Source: Candidatus Latescibacterota bacterium
GTDB taxonomy: Bacteria > Latescibacterota > UBA2968
Direction of reading: 5' to 3'
Length of the DNA stretch: 64,000 nucleotides
Assembly: GCA_965205975.1 (NCBI GenBank)
Contig: OZ242195.1
Span: forward strand, 3,488,001-3,552,000
Both the position numbers and the translations under genes were made by a program. Position 1 is the first letter of the stretch. Each line of letters opens with the position of its first letter. Below, piece by piece: positions 20,805 to 32,127 of this stretch. Below the pieces are notes generated by a model. It was not told the DNA's origin. It saw only the letters and a program-made list of their open reading frames with translations, and did no database searches.

Positions 20805-20907
20805 AGACGAATAGACGAATAGACGAATAGACGAACCCCGCTCCGCCACCCAAAATCGCTACGAGCTTCGATTCGTTGATTCGTTGATTCGTTAATTCGT
20901 TAATTCG
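20805..20907. repeat. About 100-bp element with inverted octamer tandem arms (AGACGAAT)n...(ATTCGTTG)n
   Basis: Homologous inverted copy at 59537-59635. Confidence 0.8.
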
Positions 20908-22102
20908 CATTTAAAAACTCATCCAGCGCATTCACCGCCTGGTCAATATGTTCTTTCTCAATCACCAGCGGAGGTAAAAAGCGCACCACATCTGGCCCTG
21001 CGACACATAATAGAATATCGTTATTTTCCCGAATCGCATTCATCGCATCCGCCGCCGGTATCTCCTTCAGCACTGCGCCTGCGATCAACCCACTGCCGCG
21101 AATTTCCGTCACCCCCTCGGCGTGTTTGTCTTTCAGTGCATTCAACTTCCCAAACAAATACGCACTCTTCTCCTGGATACCCGCAATAAATTCGGAATCA
21201 GATATCGTCTTAAACACCTCAATCGCCACCGCACACGACACGGGATGCGCCCCAAATGTCGCGGCATGATCCCCCGGCTCCACTGCATCGGCCACATCCT
21301 GCGTCACAAGCGTCGCCCCAATCGGCAACCCGCCAGCCAAGGGTTTCGCAAGCGTCATAATATCTGGTGCCACGCCGTACTGCTCATAGCAAAACAGCGA
21401 ACCAGCCCGCCCCAAACCGCACTGAATCTCATCGAAAATCAACAACATCTTCATCTCATCGCACAGGGCGCGCACACCCTCCAAAAATGCCGGATCTGCC
21501 GAATGAATACCCCCTTCTGCCTGTAGCGGCTCCAGCAACACAGCCACCGTCTGCCCATCTGCTATCTTCTCCACCGACTCCAAATCGTTCAAATCGGCAA
21601 ATTCAATACCCGGCAGCATCGGCCCAAATCCCTGGTGATATCTGGGTTGCCCCGTTGCAGAAATCCCGCCATACGTTCGCCCGTGAAAAGAATTATTCAT
21701 CGCGATAATTTTATTCTTAGGCGCATCTTCAAAATTCTTATACCCCCACTTGCGCACAAACTTCAGCGCAGCCTCAATGGACTCTGTCCCGCTATTGCAA
21801 AAAAACACGCGATCGGCAAACGAATGCTCGCACAACAACTGCGCCAACTGAGGTGCCGGAATCGTGTGATACAAATTTGAAACATGGATCAACTTGCCCA
21901 ACTGCGCGTTGGCAGCCTCTTGAATCATCGAATTGTTATATCCCAAAGCATTGACAGACAAGCCACTCACAAAATCGAGATAGTGCTTCCCATCCGTATC
22001 CACAATATGGACCCCATCGCCCTTTTCCAGCACAAACTCGGGCCGTCCATAGGTCTGCAAAATGTACTTCTGTTCTAAGTCAACAATTTCTCGAGTCGTC
22101 AT
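20900..22102 (-). CDS. argD: Acetylornithine aminotransferase
   Basis: FCNSGTES, FHGRT, EPLQAEGG, DEIQCGLGR, TLAKPLAGG; in arg operon. Confidence 0.92.
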   Translation of the reverse strand: MTTREIVDLEQKYILQTYGRPEFVLEKGDGVHIVDTDGKHYLDFVSGLSVNALGYNNSMIQEAANAQLGKLIHVSNLYHTIPAPQLAQLLCEHSFADRVFFCNSGTESIEAALKFVRKWGYKNFEDAPKNKIIAMNNSFHGRTYGGISATGQPRYHQGFGPMLPGIEFADLNDLESVEKIADGQTVAVLLEPLQAEGGIHSADPAFLEGVRALCDEMKMLLIFDEIQCGLGRAGSLFCYEQYGVAPDIMTLAKPLAGGLPIGATLVTQDVADAVEPGDHAATFGAHPVSCAVAIEVFKTISDSEFIAGIQEKSAYLFGKLNALKDKHAEGVTEIRGSGLIAGAVLKEIPAADAMNAIRENNDILLCVAGPDVVRFLPPLVIEKEHIDQAVNALDEFLNAN

Positions 22103-22125
22103 GCTAAATCCTTATGGTTAAAAAT

Positions 22126-23016
22126 TTACTGCACAATTTGCGTACCAATACCCTCGCGGGTAAAAATCTCCAGCAAAAGCGCGTGCGGAACACTGCCATC
22201 AATAATATGCGTCTTGTGAACACCGCCCTTCACAGAACGCTCACACGCACGCAACTTGGGAATCATCCCCCCGCTGGCAATACCTCTCTCAATCAGGGTC
22301 TCAACATCATTGACATGCAGTGTTGAAATCTGCGTATCCGGATCATCTGGAAACCGTCGGATACCATTCACATCCGTCAAAAACACCAACTTCTCCGCTT
22401 GCAATGCCCGCGCAATCTCACCTGCCGCCGTATCGGCATTCACATTATAACTCTCGCCCTCTGGCCCCAATCCAACAGGTGAAACAACGGGAATCATGCC
22501 CTCTTCACAAGCCAGACGGATGGGTTCGGGATCAATTCGGGCGACATCGCCAACATAGCCAATATCGACCCTCTTCGTCTCCCCATCTGCCTCCTCTACC
22601 GTCGCAAAATGCTTTGTCACATACATCACGCCAGCGTCTTTTGCCGACATACTGCGCGCGCGTCCATCGAGTATCTCCAAACCATCGACAATACGCCGGT
22701 TCACTTCGCCAAATAACGTATCTTCCACCACCTGCATCGACGCCTTATCCGTCACCCGCAAACCATTGACCCACTGCGATTCAATACCCGACGCCTCCAG
22801 ACGCCTGCTAATATCCTTCCCCCCGCCATGTACAACCACAGGACGCATACCCACGGTCTCCATAAACACCAGATCGGCCATTATCGTAGGAGAACCGCCC
22901 GCTTCGGGCTGTGTGCTACCGCCGTACTTCACCACAATAATTTTGTCGCGAAACTCGCGAATATACGGAAATGCCTCAATCAAAATTTCAGCCTTTTCAA
23001 TGATACTGTGATCCAT
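22126..23016 (-). CDS. argB: Acetylglutamate kinase
   Basis: VVKYGG, VHGGG, GLRVTD, NVNAD, GGMIPKL. Confidence 0.95.
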   Translation of the reverse strand: MDHSIIEKAEILIEAFPYIREFRDKIIVVKYGGSTQPEAGGSPTIMADLVFMETVGMRPVVVHGGGKDISRRLEASGIESQWVNGLRVTDKASMQVVEDTLFGEVNRRIVDGLEILDGRARSMSAKDAGVMYVTKHFATVEEADGETKRVDIGYVGDVARIDPEPIRLACEEGMIPVVSPVGLGPEGESYNVNADTAAGEIARALQAEKLVFLTDVNGIRRFPDDPDTQISTLHVNDVETLIERGIASGGMIPKLRACERSVKGGVHKTHIIDGSVPHALLLEIFTREGIGTQIVQ

Positions 23017-23233
23017 TTAACTCTCCAACGTGCGATATCAGTAGCGATAAACCTCGCAAAATCCCATAGATTCATATATATGACGTGCGGGTGAGTTATC
23101 TTCCTCAACTTGTAAATAAGCCATATTTGCGCCCGCCTTGCGATCGAATTACCCACCCATCGTGGAGCACTTGCTGCATTGGCGGACAAGCGTTTAAGCA
23201 TCTTTCTTCTATATCTCGGATCACATCGATCAT
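23017..23233 (-). pseudogene. Internally deleted GNAT acetyltransferase pseudogene
   Basis: N-terminal MIDVIRDIEERCLNACPPMQQVLHDGWVIR joined out of frame to C-terminal GANMAYLQVEEDNSPARHIYESMGFCEVYRY*YR. Confidence 0.75.
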
Positions 23234-23239
23234 GCGGAC

Positions 23240-24172
23240 TCACCCCGTCTCAATCCCATAAAGCCGCGGCAGAGCCTGCATCAAATTCATATTTTCCACA
23301 GCCTGGGTAGCTGCGCCTTTTTGCAAATTGTCTTCCAGAGCATTGATATAAGCAAAACCGTCATCAACCCCCAGCTTAATGATCAAAGCGTGTGTCCCCA
23401 CCACATCGCGCGTACCCCACCAATGCGCGTCGGAATCTTCAACCACCTGCACCAGATCGTCAGCGCCATAAGCACTTACAATCGCCTCGCGCAACTGCGC
23501 AGCGGCATCTTCATTCGCCAGCGCTTTCAAATCATCAACCAGTTCAACTCGAATATTTGCATTAATACCCGCAAACACCGACCGCAGCACAACAGGCGTA
23601 AAATTCACTTCAAACCCCGAATACAAGACCATTTCGGGCACGTGTTTGTGTCGCTTGCCATAGCTATACGCAATCTCATTCGACACATCCTCCACCTCGG
23701 CTCGCGCACCCGAATTGCCCGAAGTCGCCACAATCGTCGCTTCCCCCTGCACGAGTGCTTTGAGGGGATACAAAGACAAAATAACACTCGTGGGATAACA
23801 CCCCGGATTGCCCACCAGACGCGCCACAGCAATCTCTTTGGCAAACAAAGCCGGCATGCCATAAACCGCTTCTTTGAGCAACTCAGGCGCCGTATGCACC
23901 AGGCCATAACCCCTTTCAAACGCCTCTCTCGGCAACCGAAAAGCACCGCTCATATCGATCACCTTCGCACCGGCGGCCAGTGCCTCGGGCGCAAACTTCA
24001 TCGACTCGGGATCCTTCGTCGCCAAAAACACCACATCGCAATCGGTCAAATTGCCATCCCGGCGCCTCGAATTTTGTCGAAACGCGATATCTACCCGATC
24101 GTGGTGCTTTAACACCTTTTGGATCTCCTGCCCCACCATCCCCGTATCGCCGTAAATGCCTATTTTGATCAC
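23240..24172 (-). CDS. argC: N-acetyl-gamma-glutamyl-phosphate reductase
   Basis: VIDMSGAFRL, VGNPGCYPT, SGA, HKHVPEM, DNLQKGAA.QAV.NMN. Confidence 0.88.
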   Translation of the reverse strand: MIKIGIYGDTGMVGQEIQKVLKHHDRVDIAFRQNSRRRDGNLTDCDVVFLATKDPESMKFAPEALAAGAKVIDMSGAFRLPREAFERGYGLVHTAPELLKEAVYGMPALFAKEIAVARLVGNPGCYPTSVILSLYPLKALVQGEATIVATSGNSGARAEVEDVSNEIAYSYGKRHKHVPEMVLYSGFEVNFTPVVLRSVFAGINANIRVELVDDLKALANEDAAAQLREAIVSAYGADDLVQVVEDSDAHWWGTRDVVGTHALIIKLGVDDGFAYINALEDNLQKGAATQAVENMNLMQALPRLYGIETG

Positions 24173-24184
24173 AGCATAACCCTT

Positions 24185-24619
24185 TCAAGGTACTAAAATC
24201 TGATCTGAAATATCTGGGTAAACAGCCTTAAAATCTCGTTCATTAAAAGTTATCAAATGATCAACCTGAATCCGGTAAGCGGTATCTGCAATCAAGGCAT
24301 CGTAGGTTGCACCACCTGTAATGCCTTGTTGAGCGAGATGCACCAAAAGCGTTTTATATTCATTACCATCTGATGCAATTATTTCAAATGTGGAGACGAC
24401 ATTTTCCTGGATAAGTTGCAGTGCAGTGTTCGAAGAAATGCGTGGTTGTACTGGTAAACGCGTTAAAACAGCGTACAACTCAGCAAGTGTATGAGCCGCA
24501 ATATAGGCAGAAACATCGTCTTGTCTTGCTCGCTTTAACCATGTTAGTGCTCGAGCGTGACTGGGATGGGCTTCAACCATCGCAGCAATAAGTACAGACG
24601 TATCCAACAAAATTTTCAT
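24185..24619 (-). CDS. PIN-domain (VapC-like) toxin
   Basis: ILLDTSVL, LAELY..LT, YDALI, TFN.RDF acidic active-site pattern. Confidence 0.9.
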   Translation of the reverse strand: MKILLDTSVLIAAMVEAHPSHARALTWLKRARQDDVSAYIAAHTLAELYAVLTRLPVQPRISSNTALQLIQENVVSTFEIIASDGNEYKTLLVHLAQQGITGGATYDALIADTAYRIQVDHLITFNERDFKAVYPDISDQILVP

Positions 24620-25272
24620 AAACCAGATGTCTCCGCCAGCCCTTTCAACCGTGCTTCGCGACTTTGTTTTAACGTATTCCCAAGTGGTTGAAGTGCTTGT
24701 GAACGAATGACCAGAACATCTTCTTTACGAACTATTGGTGGATTTTCATTATTTGCAGATTTTGCCCCAACATCGCTTACTAATTGATTTGTAGATGAAG
24801 TCCTCATGTGTACCCAAATACTTTTTTCAAGACCCTGACATGCTTCTGGTGAGCGACAAAGAATAAAAATGGTATTTTCGCCAGCGAGTGTTCCAGCAAC
24901 TTCTGCCCATTCTGCTTGATCAATTGCTTCACAAACACCCTGAGCGTGTCCAGTAATTGTCTTCAAAATCAGCGTATGAGCCACTGATTCTACACCAATA
25001 ACAAAGTCTCGCAACTCACGCCTCAACAGATCGTCACCCTGTAACGACATCCGTTCTGAACCTATGGAAGTCTCTGGAATTTGATATCGAAAACCTCCTT
25101 CGCCATCAGGCACTTTTGCAATGCCCAGTTCTTTAATATCTTTTGACAGGGTCGATTGCGTAGTCGAAATCCCAACATCCTTCAACGCAGCATTCAGTTC
25201 TTCCTGGCGTGTGATAGGTCCCTCAGTAATCAGTTCTATAATTTTTTGATGGCGTTCTCTTTTTGCGCTCAT
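24616..25272 (-). CDS. argR: Arginine repressor with about 65-aa antitoxin-like C-terminal extension
   Basis: RQEEL..TQSTLSKDIKELG wHTH, LKT.TG.A..ID..GTLAGENTI; extra tail overlaps the PIN start (ATGA). Confidence 0.85.
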   Translation of the reverse strand: MSAKRERHQKIIELITEGPITRQEELNAALKDVGISTTQSTLSKDIKELGIAKVPDGEGGFRYQIPETSIGSERMSLQGDDLLRRELRDFVIGVESVAHTLILKTITGHAQGVCEAIDQAEWAEVAGTLAGENTIFILCRSPEACQGLEKSIWVHMRTSSTNQLVSDVGAKSANNENPPIVRKEDVLVIRSQALQPLGNTLKQSREARLKGLAETSGL

Positions 25273-25330
25273 AATTTTCCTCCATGTTCCGAGGTACTTT
25301 TGCCTGCATTCCGATTCTAAATGGCTGAAA

Positions 25331-25392
25331 AAAATATACCAGAAACAAACACAAGTCAAGAATAAAAATTCAAAAAAATGAATTTTTATTCC
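25331..25392 (-). promoter_or_regulatory. arg operon promoter with tandem ARG boxes
   Basis: Cores AGAATAAAAATTCA (25359-25372) and TGAATTTTTATTCC (25379-25392) next to minus-strand TTGACT...TATATT/TATTTT. Confidence 0.6.
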
Positions 25393-27725
25393 TTTTTAGC
25401 GTACTTATCCAACCACTCTGACATCTCCCACAAAACGTGCATAACCGACTCGCGCGCCCGATAGCTGTGGCTCTCGTGCGGCAACATCACCAATCGACAG
25501 ACAGCACCGTGTCCCTTGAGCGCGTTGTAAAATCGCTCGCTCTGCATGGGAAACGTACCCGAATTATTATCCGCCTCACCGTGAATGAGCAGCAAAGGCG
25601 CTTTAATTTTTGGCGCATGATTAAACGGAGACATCGTCGCATAAACATCTGCTGCCTGCCAGAACGTGCGCTCTTCTGCCTGAAAACCAAAAGGCGTCAA
25701 CGTGCGGTTATACGCGCCACTGCGCGCAATACCACAGCAAAACAAATCGGTATGCGCCAGCAAATTCGCCGTCATAAAACCGCCGTAGGAGTGTCCCCCC
25801 ACCGCCACTTTTTTGGGATCGGCCACGCCCAAACGCACCAGTTCATCAACCGCGGCCTTTGCACTATCGGCAAGCTGCTCGATATAAGTATCATTTGCCT
25901 CGCGATCTCCCTCCCCCACAATCGGCATCGCCGGACCATCCAGCACAGCATAACCCCGCGCCAAAAAAGGCAACGCGCCGTGCTGACTGATACGCACAAA
26001 TCGAAAAGGAGAATCCTTCACCTGACCCGCGGCATCTGCACTCTTAAATTCGCGGGGATAAGCCCACATCAGCACAGGCAACGGACCATCGGCTCTTTTA
26101 TATCCGGGCGGCAAATACAACGTCCCATTCAACTGCACCCCATCTTTGCGCTGGTACTGAACCAGCGACTTCTCCACCGCCTTCAACTGCGGCATCGGAT
26201 GAACAAAATGCGTGAGCTGCCGCATATCATTGCGCTGCAAATCCCGCACATAATAATTGGTCGGCTCATCAACACTCTCCCGGCTCATCAACACCGTATT
26301 GGCATCTATCATCGTCGTTGGCCGCTCGTAAAACGGCGCCTGGGAATGCATGAGACGTTCCGACTTACCCGTCTCCAGATCATAGCGGTCCAAAAACGGG
26401 CGATCGCCTTTGGGCGACGCACCATCACCTGCAAAAAACATATAGCGTTGCGACGCATCGGTCAGCAACACAGACCGCCCATTGGGCAACCGCGTAAACA
26501 CAGGTGCGCCCGGCGCGCCATAGCGATCTTCCCACGACCGATCAAACAACACCTGCGGTTCAAAATCCGAATCATCCGGGCGAATGCGCCACGTACGCAC
26601 GCGCCGCGTCTTCCACCAGCGCTCTGAAACCAACGCGAGATCACCCGTCCCCCACGAACACCCACCATAGCGCATCGCCAGCGACATAAGCACGCGCCCA
26701 TCACCCTCATAAGGCGCGTCGAGCGCATATACAATATCCCGTACCGCCACATCCACCTCGGGATCGCCGCCATCCTGTGCCACAACCCACGTCACGGTCG
26801 CAGGCGCGTCTGCGCGCCACCCAAACGAACGCGCACCTTCGGGCACGGCATCATAAGCAATCGGAATAGACTCGGCCAATGGCAAATCGACAAGTTCGCG
26901 CACCTCGCGCCCGTCCAGACCCCAGATCGCCACCTTTGTCGGAAAACGATACGAAGGCACCAGATACGAAAACGGTCGGTGAAAAGTCGATACCAGCACA
27001 TAACGACCATCTGGCGATGGATCGGCGCGATAGATCAGCCCGGGAGAACCCAGAGGTCTCACATCGCCATTCAGGCGCACAAGAGCAACCTGCGAAGTAG
27101 CATAATATTCAAATAACAACTCATCATGGGCATTCTTCAACAAATCTTGATACGTGCGCGATGGTGCTGCCCGTTCGCCCACATTTTCCTGAATCACCGG
27201 ACCTCTGGGCACATGCGAAGCCTCGGGCGGCTCACCCCGACCATCACACACCGCGCGCACCAACAGCCCCGAACTATCCGGCAACCAGACCATAGCCCCA
27301 CCAAAAACCTGATTCAATTTCACATCGCCAACCGGATGCGCCCTGCCAGTCTCCGAATTGCCGACCCACAGATCAATCCCATTATCACCTGTCAACGAAA
27401 AAGCAAACCACTGTCCATCGGGCGCCCAATAAGCCCGTCCAATTCTCGCATCCTTCGGCAACCCCGTCACAGGTAATTCACGACCATCGGCAACCCACTT
27501 GAGCGTCAGCCCATTGTAAAATCCCACGCGACTTTGCCCATTCACATCCGGATCCAGGCGCAAACCCGCCAGACGCAACTCGGACTGCGACACCTCCTCA
27601 ATAGACGGTGCGCCCGGACGGTGCATCAACAGCAGCACTGTCCTCGTCGGATCAATACTAAACGAAGGCGTCAAAGGCGCGTCAACAATCGCGGCGAGTT
27701 CCTCGGGTGGCATCTCGTAAGACAT
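25386..27725 (-). CDS. S9 family peptidase (glutamyl peptidase-like)
   Basis: Beta-propeller region plus GGHSYGG, DNNSGT, ESHSY catalytic triad. Confidence 0.9.
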   Translation of the reverse strand: MSYEMPPEELAAIVDAPLTPSFSIDPTRTVLLLMHRPGAPSIEEVSQSELRLAGLRLDPDVNGQSRVGFYNGLTLKWVADGRELPVTGLPKDARIGRAYWAPDGQWFAFSLTGDNGIDLWVGNSETGRAHPVGDVKLNQVFGGAMVWLPDSSGLLVRAVCDGRGEPPEASHVPRGPVIQENVGERAAPSRTYQDLLKNAHDELLFEYYATSQVALVRLNGDVRPLGSPGLIYRADPSPDGRYVLVSTFHRPFSYLVPSYRFPTKVAIWGLDGREVRELVDLPLAESIPIAYDAVPEGARSFGWRADAPATVTWVVAQDGGDPEVDVAVRDIVYALDAPYEGDGRVLMSLAMRYGGCSWGTGDLALVSERWWKTRRVRTWRIRPDDSDFEPQVLFDRSWEDRYGAPGAPVFTRLPNGRSVLLTDASQRYMFFAGDGASPKGDRPFLDRYDLETGKSERLMHSQAPFYERPTTMIDANTVLMSRESVDEPTNYYVRDLQRNDMRQLTHFVHPMPQLKAVEKSLVQYQRKDGVQLNGTLYLPPGYKRADGPLPVLMWAYPREFKSADAAGQVKDSPFRFVRISQHGALPFLARGYAVLDGPAMPIVGEGDREANDTYIEQLADSAKAAVDELVRLGVADPKKVAVGGHSYGGFMTANLLAHTDLFCCGIARSGAYNRTLTPFGFQAEERTFWQAADVYATMSPFNHAPKIKAPLLLIHGEADNNSGTFPMQSERFYNALKGHGAVCRLVMLPHESHSYRARESVMHVLWEMSEWLDKYAKKE

Positions 27726-28940: not shown

Positions 28941-31448
28941 TCACCGATTATTCCACTCAATTGTAAAACCCGTACTTTCTTCAAACGCTATCGTGCGTGT
29001 ATCGGCATCCTCTGGCACCATCGCCACCGGCACCACCACGCGATTTTCATTCAGATAAATTTTCGCCGCACCGCGCACGACACATTCTTCCGGTGTCATT
29101 GCCCGCGCTTCCCGGGCAATCTCATCTTGATTGGCAGACGGACGTACCCGAATCTCCCACCCGATCCTCTCGCCCACCACGTCTAACACCTCCCGATAGC
29201 GTTCGCCCACCTGTTGGGAAATAAAAGCCACCTCAATATATGAACCGCTCTTCAGACCCATCTTTGACGGCGCGTGGGGTTGATCCCCAAATGCCCTTCG
29301 GATCTCGCTATATGCTTTATTAATCTCCCATGCATCTGACCTCTTCTCTGGCATTGCGACTTCTGTCTTTACACCCCCTGGCCAATCCAGTATCAAATCA
29401 AAACCCGTCTTTGCCTTAAAACCCGTCGTCGCATCACCGCTTACCCGCTCCCAATCATCCGCCCCATCCTTAGACACGTCAACAGCCAACACCACCGCCT
29501 TTTGATCCAGATGCAGCGCAGGTGCCTTCAAAACCCTTGCACCTGCGGGCACAGCATCTCGCGCCTCTTCAAAAAGCTGCCCCTGATGTGGCGTCTCCCG
29601 CAACCTGAGCGACCAGCCCGTTTCATCCTCTAATTTGGCAAGCATCTCGCCATACTGCTCTCGAACCACATCGGGAAAATAAAAAGCCAGTTCATACACA
29701 CCCTCATCTATGTATGCGCTGCACTTAAACAATCCCGCCTCGGGCGGAAAAATCGACATAATATGCGCGCGGGCCTCATTCATCTCCATCGGCCCGGCTT
29801 CTGACACCTCTTTTGGATGGAACAAAAACGCACGCCGATAATCCGGCTCAAAAAACGCCCTCGAATCCGCCAACAACAACCGAAAAGCCTCCACCTCTGA
29901 AGGCGTCGTCATCTCCGTACCGAACCACATCTCCGCCAATTCCTGTGCGCGAAACGGCCCCTTCGCGCCCGTTTCCAACACATAATTGTGTACCTCCGCA
30001 AGCGTATCATCGCTCAGCGCTCTTCCGCCTGCAATACCCGCCCGTGAAACGCGCCGACCATAGCCGCGTTGTCGCATCGCCCCCATTGCCTCCACGGAAT
30101 ATGCACCGCCATTTTCTGGCAACTGCACGCCCTCTGGCAAATACACATCCACCATCGAAGACAGTGCGCCGCGCGCCTCTGCATCGCCGTGTACCAGAAA
30201 ACAGGTACGCGGTTTCAACCTCTGAACCAACCCCGTCAGTTCACCTCCATCTGCATGCGCCGAAAGCGAATAGGGTTCTACCTGACACGCCACGGATATG
30301 CGCTGCCCATTCAGCATCAACGCCCGCTCTTCGGAATCCTTCGCCTGCATCAGATCCAACAACGCACGCCCGGGAGACTCCTCATCCTGATACCCCGTTA
30401 TAGCAATCAAATTCGCCGCATCGCTGGCCAAATGCTCGGCATAAAAACTCGACGCGCCTCCGATCAACATCCCCGAAGACGCCACAATACAACACGGCGG
30501 CCCCGACAAAACACGGCGGCGATCAGCCGGTGACGACACCGCTCCCACAGCATCCGAATAAAAAATATCCTCATCTCGCGCCACCCTGCGCCGCACCGCT
30601 GGCGCGAGATCATCGCCAAACGTCGAATACACCGCATTGACCGACCGCACCATCCCATCGACAAACACGGGAAACTCGGGAATCTGCTTGCGCCGCATCG
30701 CCCGTGCCAAAATTAGAATAACCTCCTGAGAACGCCCCACAGCAAAAGCGGGAACCAGCACCTTGCCGCCCGCTTCAATCACCTCGGCCACGCGCAATGC
30801 AAGCGCGGCCTCTTGCTGGGCGCGATCTGCATGTTGACGATTGCCATACGTCGATTCCATCACCATCACATCGGGTCGGCACTGCGGCACAACCATACCC
30901 GGAATCGTCAGCTGATTGGCAACCGACACATCGCCCGTCATCAAAACACTTTCCCGCACCCCCTCAATATAGATCAACGCCGCACCCAGAATATGCCCGG
31001 CGGGAATCCACGTCGCGGTCAACGCGCCATCGCAAATCGGCACTGTTGCAAGCCACGGCACATCCACCATACGCCCCAAAGCCTCATCGGCTGCCTCGGG
31101 CGGATAAAGCGGCAACTCGCCATCCCGGTCTTGCGCCATCAATTTCACGGCATCTGACAACAACACCCGTGTAATCGCCTGCGTTGCAGGCGTACAATAC
31201 ACCTTCACACCCGCCGGCAAACTATTCACCAAAACCGGCAACGCACCCGTGTGATCGGTATGCGCGTGTGTAAGCAGCACCTCATCGGGCATACCCACAT
31301 CGTCCAGCACAGAAAAATTGGGCAACTGCGATCCCTGTGCAGCACCCATTCGAATACCCGCATCCACCAGAATGCGTCGCCCTTCGATCTCAATCAATGT
31401 GCAGGAAGCACCGACCTCGTCGGCACCGCCCAAAAAGTGGAGTTTCAT
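28941..31448 (-). CDS. MBL-fold beta-CASP ribonuclease with long repeated C-terminal extension
   Basis: GGADEVGASC, THAHTDH, AGHILG, MESTYG, FAVGRSQE, GYQ, LSAHAD, VHG. Confidence 0.9.
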   Translation of the reverse strand: MKLHFLGGADEVGASCTLIEIEGRRILVDAGIRMGAAQGSQLPNFSVLDDVGMPDEVLLTHAHTDHTGALPVLVNSLPAGVKVYCTPATQAITRVLLSDAVKLMAQDRDGELPLYPPEAADEALGRMVDVPWLATVPICDGALTATWIPAGHILGAALIYIEGVRESVLMTGDVSVANQLTIPGMVVPQCRPDVMVMESTYGNRQHADRAQQEAALALRVAEVIEAGGKVLVPAFAVGRSQEVILILARAMRRKQIPEFPVFVDGMVRSVNAVYSTFGDDLAPAVRRRVARDEDIFYSDAVGAVSSPADRRRVLSGPPCCIVASSGMLIGGASSFYAEHLASDAANLIAITGYQDEESPGRALLDLMQAKDSEERALMLNGQRISVACQVEPYSLSAHADGGELTGLVQRLKPRTCFLVHGDAEARGALSSMVDVYLPEGVQLPENGGAYSVEAMGAMRQRGYGRRVSRAGIAGGRALSDDTLAEVHNYVLETGAKGPFRAQELAEMWFGTEMTTPSEVEAFRLLLADSRAFFEPDYRRAFLFHPKEVSEAGPMEMNEARAHIMSIFPPEAGLFKCSAYIDEGVYELAFYFPDVVREQYGEMLAKLEDETGWSLRLRETPHQGQLFEEARDAVPAGARVLKAPALHLDQKAVVLAVDVSKDGADDWERVSGDATTGFKAKTGFDLILDWPGGVKTEVAMPEKRSDAWEINKAYSEIRRAFGDQPHAPSKMGLKSGSYIEVAFISQQVGERYREVLDVVGERIGWEIRVRPSANQDEIAREARAMTPEECVVRGAAKIYLNENRVVVPVAMVPEDADTRTIAFEESTGFTIEWNNR

Positions 31449-31506
31449 GAAATAGTTGTCCCAAAAACTAAAATACGCTATTTTTTCCAGACAGGAGGTA
31501 ATCGCT

Positions 31507-32127
31507 TTGATCGACATTCAAATCCAAAAAGAGAAAACACTTCCCGAAGAACCCGTCACAATCGAGCAATTTCTGGCCTGGTGTGAAGAAGACATTTGGG
31601 CCGAATGGGTGGATGGAGAAGTCATTATCATGTCGCCAGCATCGCGTAAACACCAGCAAATTGCAGATTTTTTATCCGCCATTCTTCGGATCTTTTCAGA
31701 AACCAAAAACCTGGGCCTCGCCATCAGTGCGCCCTTCTCCATGCGCCTCGATGAACCCTCCGCAATTCGAGAACCCGACCTGCTATTCATCAGCACAGCA
31801 AATTTGCACCGTCTCAAAGAAAGCTATCTCGACGGCCCGGCAGATATTGCAATCGAAATCGTCTCGCCTGAAAGTATTGAACGCGACCGAGAAGACAAAT
31901 TTACCGAATATGAACAGGCGGGTATCTCAGAATACTGGCTCATCGATCTCGTTCACGAACAAGCCGAATTTTATATTTTGCAACAGGGAAGATATCATCT
32001 CGCCGACATCTCCGACGGTATCTTCCGATCCCACATCTTATCCGGGTTCGACCTGCAAATCGCATGGCTCTGGCAAAACCCCCTGCCCAACACATTGCGC
32101 GTCTTGCGCAAAATCGGCATTTTGTAA
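31507..32127 (+). CDS. Uma2 (DUF820) family endonuclease
   Basis: AEWVDGEV, HQ, REPDLLF, ADIAIEIVSP, DREDK..Y..AGI.EYWLID; TTG start after AGGAGG. Confidence 0.9.
   Translation: MIDIQIQKEKTLPEEPVTIEQFLAWCEEDIWAEWVDGEVIIMSPASRKHQQIADFLSAILRIFSETKNLGLAISAPFSMRLDEPSAIREPDLLFISTANLHRLKESYLDGPADIAIEIVSPESIERDREDKFTEYEQAGISEYWLIDLVHEQAEFYILQQGRYHLADISDGIFRSHILSGFDLQIAWLWQNPLPNTLRVLRKIGIL

Follow-up and report, generated by a model that had tools for sequence, protein, structure and literature searches.

Can the only arginine repressor of a bacterium also serve as the antitoxin of a toxin–antitoxin pair? The question is raised by the head of the arginine operon in a 64,000-nucleotide stretch of the genome of an uncultured marine Candidatus Latescibacterota bacterium (the window; its genome is G000 below), where a complete ArgR runs on into a C-terminal tail and overlaps a PIN-domain gene by ATGA. 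The open reading frame lies on the minus strand (ATG at 25272, stop at 24616), encodes 218 aa, and is the sole argR copy in the genome; Pfam recognises both domains of the repressor (Arg_repressor, residues 4–67; Arg_repressor_C, residues 87–151) and finds no match in the tail. The original prediction had described a continuation of about 65 aa, and indeed the tail reaches 56 aa past the native stop position (codon 163 genus-wide, CAA here), or ~66 aa past the Pfam core, and contains both motifs quoted there—PPIVRKEDVLV (178–188) and SREARL (204–209). The overlapping PIN gene, which had been called intact-looking, encodes 144 aa with a clear Pfam PIN match (E = 1.3e-14; 55.3 bits against a cut-off of 23.6). 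The order argR-PIN-argC-(GNAT)-argB-argD also holds, with Semialdhyde_dh, AA_kinase, and Aminotran_3 matches for the biosynthetic genes, except that the GNAT gene is a remnant. Likewise, the argR-PIN block is AT-richer than its neighbours, as stated: its GC content is 42.3%, against 51.2% and 55.2% alongside; of 4711 segments of equal length across the genome, 2.6% have a GC content this low.

The fusion is neither an assembly error nor the loss of a stop in a single genome. Single contigs from two runs that are possibly the source samples, X1 (24071–25381) and X2 (23543–25381), cover it with zero differing letters or gaps and hold no stop behind the ArgR core. The frame is also open in three further species-level genomes and in all 24 distinct full-length database variants (the window's included), and two Ca. 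Latescibacterota MAG records bear the same block. An upstream TTG start, which would give a protein of 247 aa, was rejected because it sits inside the -35 element, while the ATG has a Shine-Dalgarno sequence and agrees with all relatives. In a structural model of the monomer, the ArgR fold extends to residue 157, residues 159–177 are unstructured (pLDDT <50), and the tail is predicted to form a hairpin (180–189) and a helix (197–215), both at modest confidence (Table 1).

Table 1. Features of the argR-PIN locus and the adjoining arginine operon (positions in the window)
Feature	Position	Strand	Basis and remarks
Twin ARG-box-type operators (putative)	25357..25394	.	18-bp boxes at 25357–25374 and 25377–25394, 20 bp apart; the first overlaps the -35
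Predicted sigma-70-type promoter	25331..25359	-	-35 TTGACT, 17 nt, -10 TATTTT; 9/12 match
Shine-Dalgarno GGAGG, strong	25279..25283	-	Ahead of the argR ATG; duplex -9.3 kcal/mol
Allelic block (leader, argR-tail, PIN)	24173..25352	-	BLASTN breakpoints against G003 and G019; ends just past the -35 and just ahead of the argC start
ArgR codons 1–162, winged-helix DNA-binding and C-terminal oligomerisation domains	24787..25272	-	Pfam, model, comparison with AhrC
Read-through codon 163 (CAA) and flexible linker to residue 177	24742..24786	-	Same or equivalent codon is a stop in 14/20 genus genomes; pLDDT; variability
VapB-type neutralising module (predicted), residues 178–218	24616..24741	-	Hairpin 180–189, helix 197–215 with R205 and R208; private G185D
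VapC/PIN ribonuclease gene (predicted), 144 aa	24185..24619	-	D6, E47, D107, D129 present; ATGA-coupled to argR
argC, first gene past the block	23240..24172	-	Semialdhyde_dh (Pfam)
GNAT acetyltransferase-like remnant	22980..23243	-	No Pfam match; family label read from relatives' sequence
argB and argD, operon end	20900..23016	-	AA_kinase, Aminotran_3 (Pfam)

We examined the identity of the tail through the partners of related PIN genes, reading the gene upstream of PIN relatives at 80 metagenome and 3 genome loci, of which 75 were usable (8 were dropped for an upstream gene that was cut off or missing, a wrong frame, or a misplaced PIN start). The heads of these 75 upstream genes are AbrB-fold in 56 cases, HTH_17 in 3, DUF2281 in 2, and without a family in 14; none is an ArgR. 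A profile of 71 distinct antitoxin C-termini (last ~50 residues), including no Latescibacterota sequence, matches the ArgR tail with E = 4.7e-8, the next best match among 106,350 genome frames having an E value of 1.3. The match spans residues 178–216 and follows the pattern P-x-x-x-x-K-x-(G)-V-L-V, then R205 and R208, which are conserved in 66/71 and 64/71 of the outside tails. Similarity to the window's tail also increases with similarity to the window's PIN (Spearman 0.46, n = 70, kin that are not independent). A word-based search with the 62-aa tail alone gave no candidate, which reflects too few shared words rather than absence (a profile search gave 650 matches), and the tail profile matched no solved structure (best E 0.25). 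Together, these comparisons support the view that the tail is the C-terminal toxin-binding module that antitoxins of this PIN clade, mostly AbrB-type, carry, as had been proposed from its resemblance to AbrB-type VapB C-termini, and that ArgR occupies the position of their DNA-binding domain. By the same comparisons, the antitoxin head appears to be exchangeable and the tail constant within this PIN clade, and the tail very probably binds the window's PIN. Elsewhere in the collection, the module is borne by excisionase-like HTH_17 heads upstream of close PIN relatives (L078, L084, and L086), is doubled in tandem in four antitoxins (P0123, P0141, P0218, and P0264), and is fused ahead of DUF2283 in P0241.

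Within the lineage, the linker is the most variable part of the protein among the 24 variants (0.137), compared with 0.039 for the module and 0.042 and 0.024 for the ArgR domains. The dN/dS of the module is 0.30–0.38 against G018, the genome that keeps the fusion after losing most of its PIN, and 0.58–0.79 among three close carriers (1–4 synonymous changes); that of the ArgR core is lower, at 0.03–0.16. One tail substitution, G185D, is private to the window's genome, the residue being G in 23/24 variants and 63/71 outside tails. An open frame of 63 codons has a 21% chance of persisting at 27% divergence, counting substitutions only, and is thus weak evidence by itself.

In our best reading, the ArgR-tail protein would work like a VapB, yet falls outside the AbrB/MazE family: the gene lies directly upstream of and overlaps vapC (ATGA), as in type II systems, but the usual small protein with an AbrB, RHH, PHD, or small HTH head is absent, the head being a full ArgR in a protein of 218 aa. 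AbrB/SpoVT-type VapBC pairs (MazE_antitoxin PF04014 with PIN PF01850) share with the window's pair the PIN clade (35–59% identity in 80 loci), the C-terminal module (P-x-L-x-x-K-x-G-V-L-V ... R-x-x-R), the gene order, and mostly the 4-nt overlap; they have a 45-aa AbrB head where the window has a complete 162-aa ArgR, and the window's pair, unlike them, is without its own toxin–antitoxin promoter, being embedded in a biosynthetic operon and read as part of it. Among PIN antitoxins, the head has been reported to be an RHH, AbrB, PHD, COG2442, COG2886, COG2880, or MerR-like domain (Makarova et al. 2009, PMC2701414). The systems described there are alike in their exchangeable heads, as with the HTH_17 and DUF2281 heads on this very module; the heads named in that survey are small stand-alone DNA-binding domains, none of them a repressor that senses a ligand, forms hexamers, and governs a core pathway. 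Within the literature searched, judged from titles and abstract openings and covering subscription papers thinly, we found no ArgR–antitoxin fusion.

The PIN toxin, a predicted VapC, looks alive. Its model has a pLDDT of 95.8, and the top Foldseek matches are VapC chains, the best being M. tuberculosis VapBC26 (PDB 5X3T, 5x3t_B; TM 0.76, 22% identity), which likewise has four acidic residues; by sequence, the PIN profile matched no solved structure. D6 and E47 are each present in 118/118 sequences of our PIN alignment (A1), and D107 and D129 in 115/118; all four are in the window's PIN, and their equation with D4, E42, D97, and D116 of VapC26 rests on position rather than superposition. The gene is under purifying selection (dN/dS 0.09–0.14 among three carriers, similar to argC). 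The window's PIN has a private D112, where 15/15 other close PINs among the matches listed have H. In VapBC26, the antitoxin C-terminus is reported to be unfolded alone and its helix to cover and block the active site; VapC26 cuts the 23S sarcin-ricin loop, and other VapCs cut tRNA (PMC5737657). That antitoxin, unlike the window's, has an RHH head and a different tail sequence. The window's genome is TA-rich, with 24 PIN genes, most of them AT-rich and most with a short upstream partner. Further along the window, an AT-richer Uma2-type gene (31456–32127, plus strand) adjoins a gene (28941–31517, minus strand) for a beta-CASP metallo-beta-lactamase-fold nuclease of 858 aa whose C-terminal half is without a family.

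How widespread is the arrangement? We found ArgR in 149 of 168 phylum genomes and the module at the argR locus in 6, which all belong to this genus. The genus set comprises 21 genomes, in one of which (G009, 98% complete) our queries matched neither argR nor argB, a possible operon loss; the tally concerns the other 20. Three carry fusion and PIN (G000, G016, G006), three a tail without PIN, two are decayed, twelve are plain, and none has a PIN without a tail—a pattern, not a statistic, because the genomes are kin. Among the three with a tail only, G018 keeps the fusion and the last 19 codons of a PIN, and G004 and G015 encode an ArgR of 161 aa and, behind it and coupled by ATGA, a separate 55-aa ORF belonging to this family of modules (29% identical, E ~1e-3 in 180 frames); no close PIN for this orphan ORF was found in either genome. 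This headless ORF (L014, L016) is identical between the two at 165 of 168 bases, their flanks being 93–96% alike. The decayed alleles, G017 and G011, have a stop at codon 163 or the equivalent position, with scraps of tail or PIN. Codon 163, which is CAA in carriers, is a stop codon in all 12 plain alleles; that G017 and G011 end at the same point accords with a reversion as well as with the fusion having arisen twice. The tally fits a toxin that is always lost before the tail (0/20 PIN-only), and a database PIN of 109 aa (P0298), in which an in-frame deletion has removed D6, suggests one more toxin loss. An intact PIN, P0004, is 81% identical to the window's and its end matches the G018 remnant; a second fused lineage may thus still have its toxin somewhere.

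The search for the fusion in other genomes, which had been proposed as a check, succeeded within this lineage, in the three other species-level genomes and the 24 database variants noted above. In the protein database, it comprises 5 clusters and 27 sequences, with tails all at least 74% identical. Outside this lineage, none was found among the best 150 of 650 matches to a profile that included tails of the window's lineage; the single ArgR fusion among these 150 is a 99% copy of the window's. Weak, partial tail-profile matches occur in long frames of four genomes (G027, G044, G030, and G147; E 5e-4 to 5e-3), and a match in G066 was rejected as an ordinary AbrB antitoxin.

The fusion belongs to a 1.18-kb block for which close relatives have a different allele, with plain argR. 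Run contigs have joints or loose ends at 25352/25353 and 24172/24174, and both the plain allele (X1, X2, X19) and the separate-ORF allele (X5) join at the block ends. In the argR tree, the three carriers form one long-branched clade (100/100), a grouping rejected by the flanking genes argC, S9 peptidase, argB, and argD (p-AU 6e-65, 6e-6, 8e-5, and 0.017; outgroup G029 excluded). G000 and plain G008 are 94–96% identical in the flanks and 70.6% in argR; for G006 and plain G019 the values are 92–95% and 70.0%. Across alleles, then, argR is ~70% alike against 91–96% for the flanks, and the alleles are scattered across species, whereas within alleles argR (G000–G006, 90.5%; G008–G019, 91.7%) matches the flanks (90–94%), so recombination appears to have reshuffled two alleles that are each about as old as the subclade. 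We reject a recent spread of the block from one to another of the three carriers, because it is no more alike between them than the flanks. The simplest inference is that the fusion arose when codon 163 of argR ceased to be a stop. The block was found in no RNA run; contigs of the RNA run X19 have a plain-allele relative.

Just upstream of the block lies a pair of palindromic boxes, which we take to be ARG boxes. The pair precedes argR and covers the -35 in 20/20 genus genomes with argR, and the twin site is unique in the window's genome, scoring 22.1 against 6.9 for the next site when the matrix is derived from the boxes themselves. There was no second twin box in the genome and none scoring above 8 in the 2.8 kb upstream of argG, and a wider ArgR regulon, including argG-argH, was rejected; what can be seen of this ArgR's regulon is thus confined to its own operon, a loop like that of toxin–antitoxin autoregulation. 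The promoter is a prediction of a kind no more numerous in the region than in shuffles, and its TTGAC is kept in relatives. Carriers have a long leader with GGAGG, and most plain alleles an ATG shortly after the -10. With the anti-Shine-Dalgarno sequence that we presume, the duplex ahead of the argR ATG is far stronger than that ahead of an internal Met156 (-3.8 kcal/mol). Beyond the block, argC and argB are separated by a second come-and-go insert, the GNAT-like gene: it is 247 aa long in 4/4 relatives compared (G003, G014, G008, and G001) and absent in others, and the window's copy has lost ~500 bp at 23143/23146 and bears a frameshift. Repeated AT-rich units that look like a single ARG box also occur at G000:C1 ~2419495–2419540, directly upstream of an rsmH-like gene (label read from sequence) that heads a cell-division cluster.

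Both ArgR domains match ArgR/AhrC of Bacillus subtilis (PDB 1F9N) over residues 4–150 (E = 1.2e-29), and the family's winged-helix and C-terminal domains are present, as are tandem ARG boxes at an arg promoter (one site). Twin palindromic operators over the promoter are likewise described for the B. subtilis protein (PMC7248756), from which the window's ArgR differs in its 56-aa extension, in having a twin operator only at its own operon, and in its arginine pocket. There, Q111, D118, and T128 are kept (Q104, D111, and T121 in B. subtilis), but the GlyAspAsp turn, described as the single motif that four studied ArgRs share and as contacting arginine (PMC7248756), is replaced by G131-E132-N133. 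Across 30 argR loci from 30 Latescibacterota genomes (L001–L030), with or without a tail, the turn reads GEN in 29, GEH in 1, and GDD in none, which points to a lineage-wide ArgR variant; the recognition helix in these loci reads TQSTLSKD. With pocket residues kept but GEN in place of GDD, arginine sensing by this ArgR is uncertain, and arginine control of the toxin is possible.

How might the pair work? We favour, with a probability of roughly 0.6, a functional type II VapBC in which the cell's sole ArgR acts as antitoxin, autoregulated via the ARG boxes and kept mainly by addiction. A headless VapB module with its VapC would have inserted between argR and argC, and loss of the stop at codon 163 would have brought the module into frame. 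ArgR would then provide what AbrB provides elsewhere—expression signals, oligomerisation, and autorepression via the twin boxes over the -35—and the tail (a hairpin and an Arg-rich helix on a flexible linker of ~19 residues) would bind and block VapC, up to six per hexamer, with ATGA coupling and the strong Shine-Dalgarno placing antitoxin ahead of toxin. Truncating argR, or swapping it for a plain allele, would free the RNase, and escape would therefore need prior toxin loss; this fits both toxin-first decay and the persistence of a minority allele across species. Since the intact pair is in the minority (3/20), addiction would have to be leaky or costly. The original prediction that the arrangement might stabilise the operon stands only in part: because the block holds the leader, argR-tail, and PIN only, addiction could protect this argR allele but not argCBD, and 17 of 20 genus genomes are without an intact PIN there. 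Counting against a working, addictive pair are the weaker dN/dS of the module, the private G185D and D112, and the G018 tail that has outlived its PIN.

It had also been suggested that the fusion ties an RNase toxin to arginine sensing. The pair would then be a domesticated switch in which arginine on the ArgR hexamer sets the amount of free VapC—or, in variants, in which ARG-box repression is followed by tail proteolysis, or VapC loading alters operator binding—so that growth arrest and arginine synthesis are wired together for host benefit. Such a switch would suit the predicted transcription of toxin and antitoxin only from the ARG-box promoter, the kept pocket residues, purifying selection on the PIN through the subclade's entire age, and the retention of both alleles across species, which balancing selection could also yield. 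We nevertheless regard it as unlikely, given the GEN turn shared with plain relatives, the 17/20 genus genomes that lack the toxin at the locus, and the low-confidence linker parting pocket from tail, which argues against direct allostery. No more likely is a metabolite-gated system, in which arginine or another ligand of the GEN pocket, or toxin loading, switches toxin release and arg transcription on a hexamer with up to six VapC, and the allele acts as a drive element resisting plain argR across species. The interpretation first offered is thus partly supported, in the identity of the tail and in ArgR as its head.

Two readings would give the fusion itself less meaning, and we consider both improbable. 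If it were incidental, the antitoxin would be a separate 63-aa peptide made from Met156 (or clipped off), with ArgR lending its promoter only; Met156 is present in 24/24 variants and G018 and absent from two decayed alleles, and the separate ORFs of G004 and G015 sit at the same site, but the Shine-Dalgarno before Met156 is weak, the residue lies inside the last helix of ArgR in the model and is also a Met in a tail-less outgroup ArgR (G023), and no carrier has a stop between the parts. Alternatively, the locus may be a relic, with a harmless or housekeeping PIN and a tail tolerated as an appendage on its way out, G185D and H112D being the first signs. Repeated decay (G018, G017, G011, G004, G015, and P0298), the weak dN/dS signal of the module, the many other PIN genes in the genome, and the decaying GNAT neighbour accord with this, but the argC-like dN/dS of the PIN, its full set of acidic residues, the invariable loss of toxin ahead of tail, and a module far more conserved than the linker all speak against it.

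On the favoured reading of a working VapBC with ArgR as antitoxin, the parts are known and the combination would be new among type II VapBC systems: a VapB-like function outside the AbrB family, carried by an ArgR without GDD. A core metabolic regulator seems to have been captured by a selfish toxin–antitoxin pair; as the head is the only copy of that repressor and has its own operator, the toxin would make argR undeletable and would itself come under amino-acid control signals. Symbiont arginine supply has been reported as important to a sponge host (bioRxiv 10.1101/2020.08.06.240770), and type II toxin–antitoxin systems have been noted in sponge Latescibacterota (PMC12993501); a plain-allele relative is present in a run labelled as a sponge metatranscriptome, and a tie to the arginine supply of the sponge is speculation. 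The genus displays a full range of states at this locus—the plain allele, a separate tail ORF, the toxin-bearing fusion, the fusion left once the toxin is gone, and the re-truncated form—that bears on two debated questions, how toxin–antitoxin systems capture host regulators and whether addiction or benefit maintains chromosomal systems. If arginine does gate the toxin, the locus would couple an RNase toxin chemically and directly to a single amino acid.
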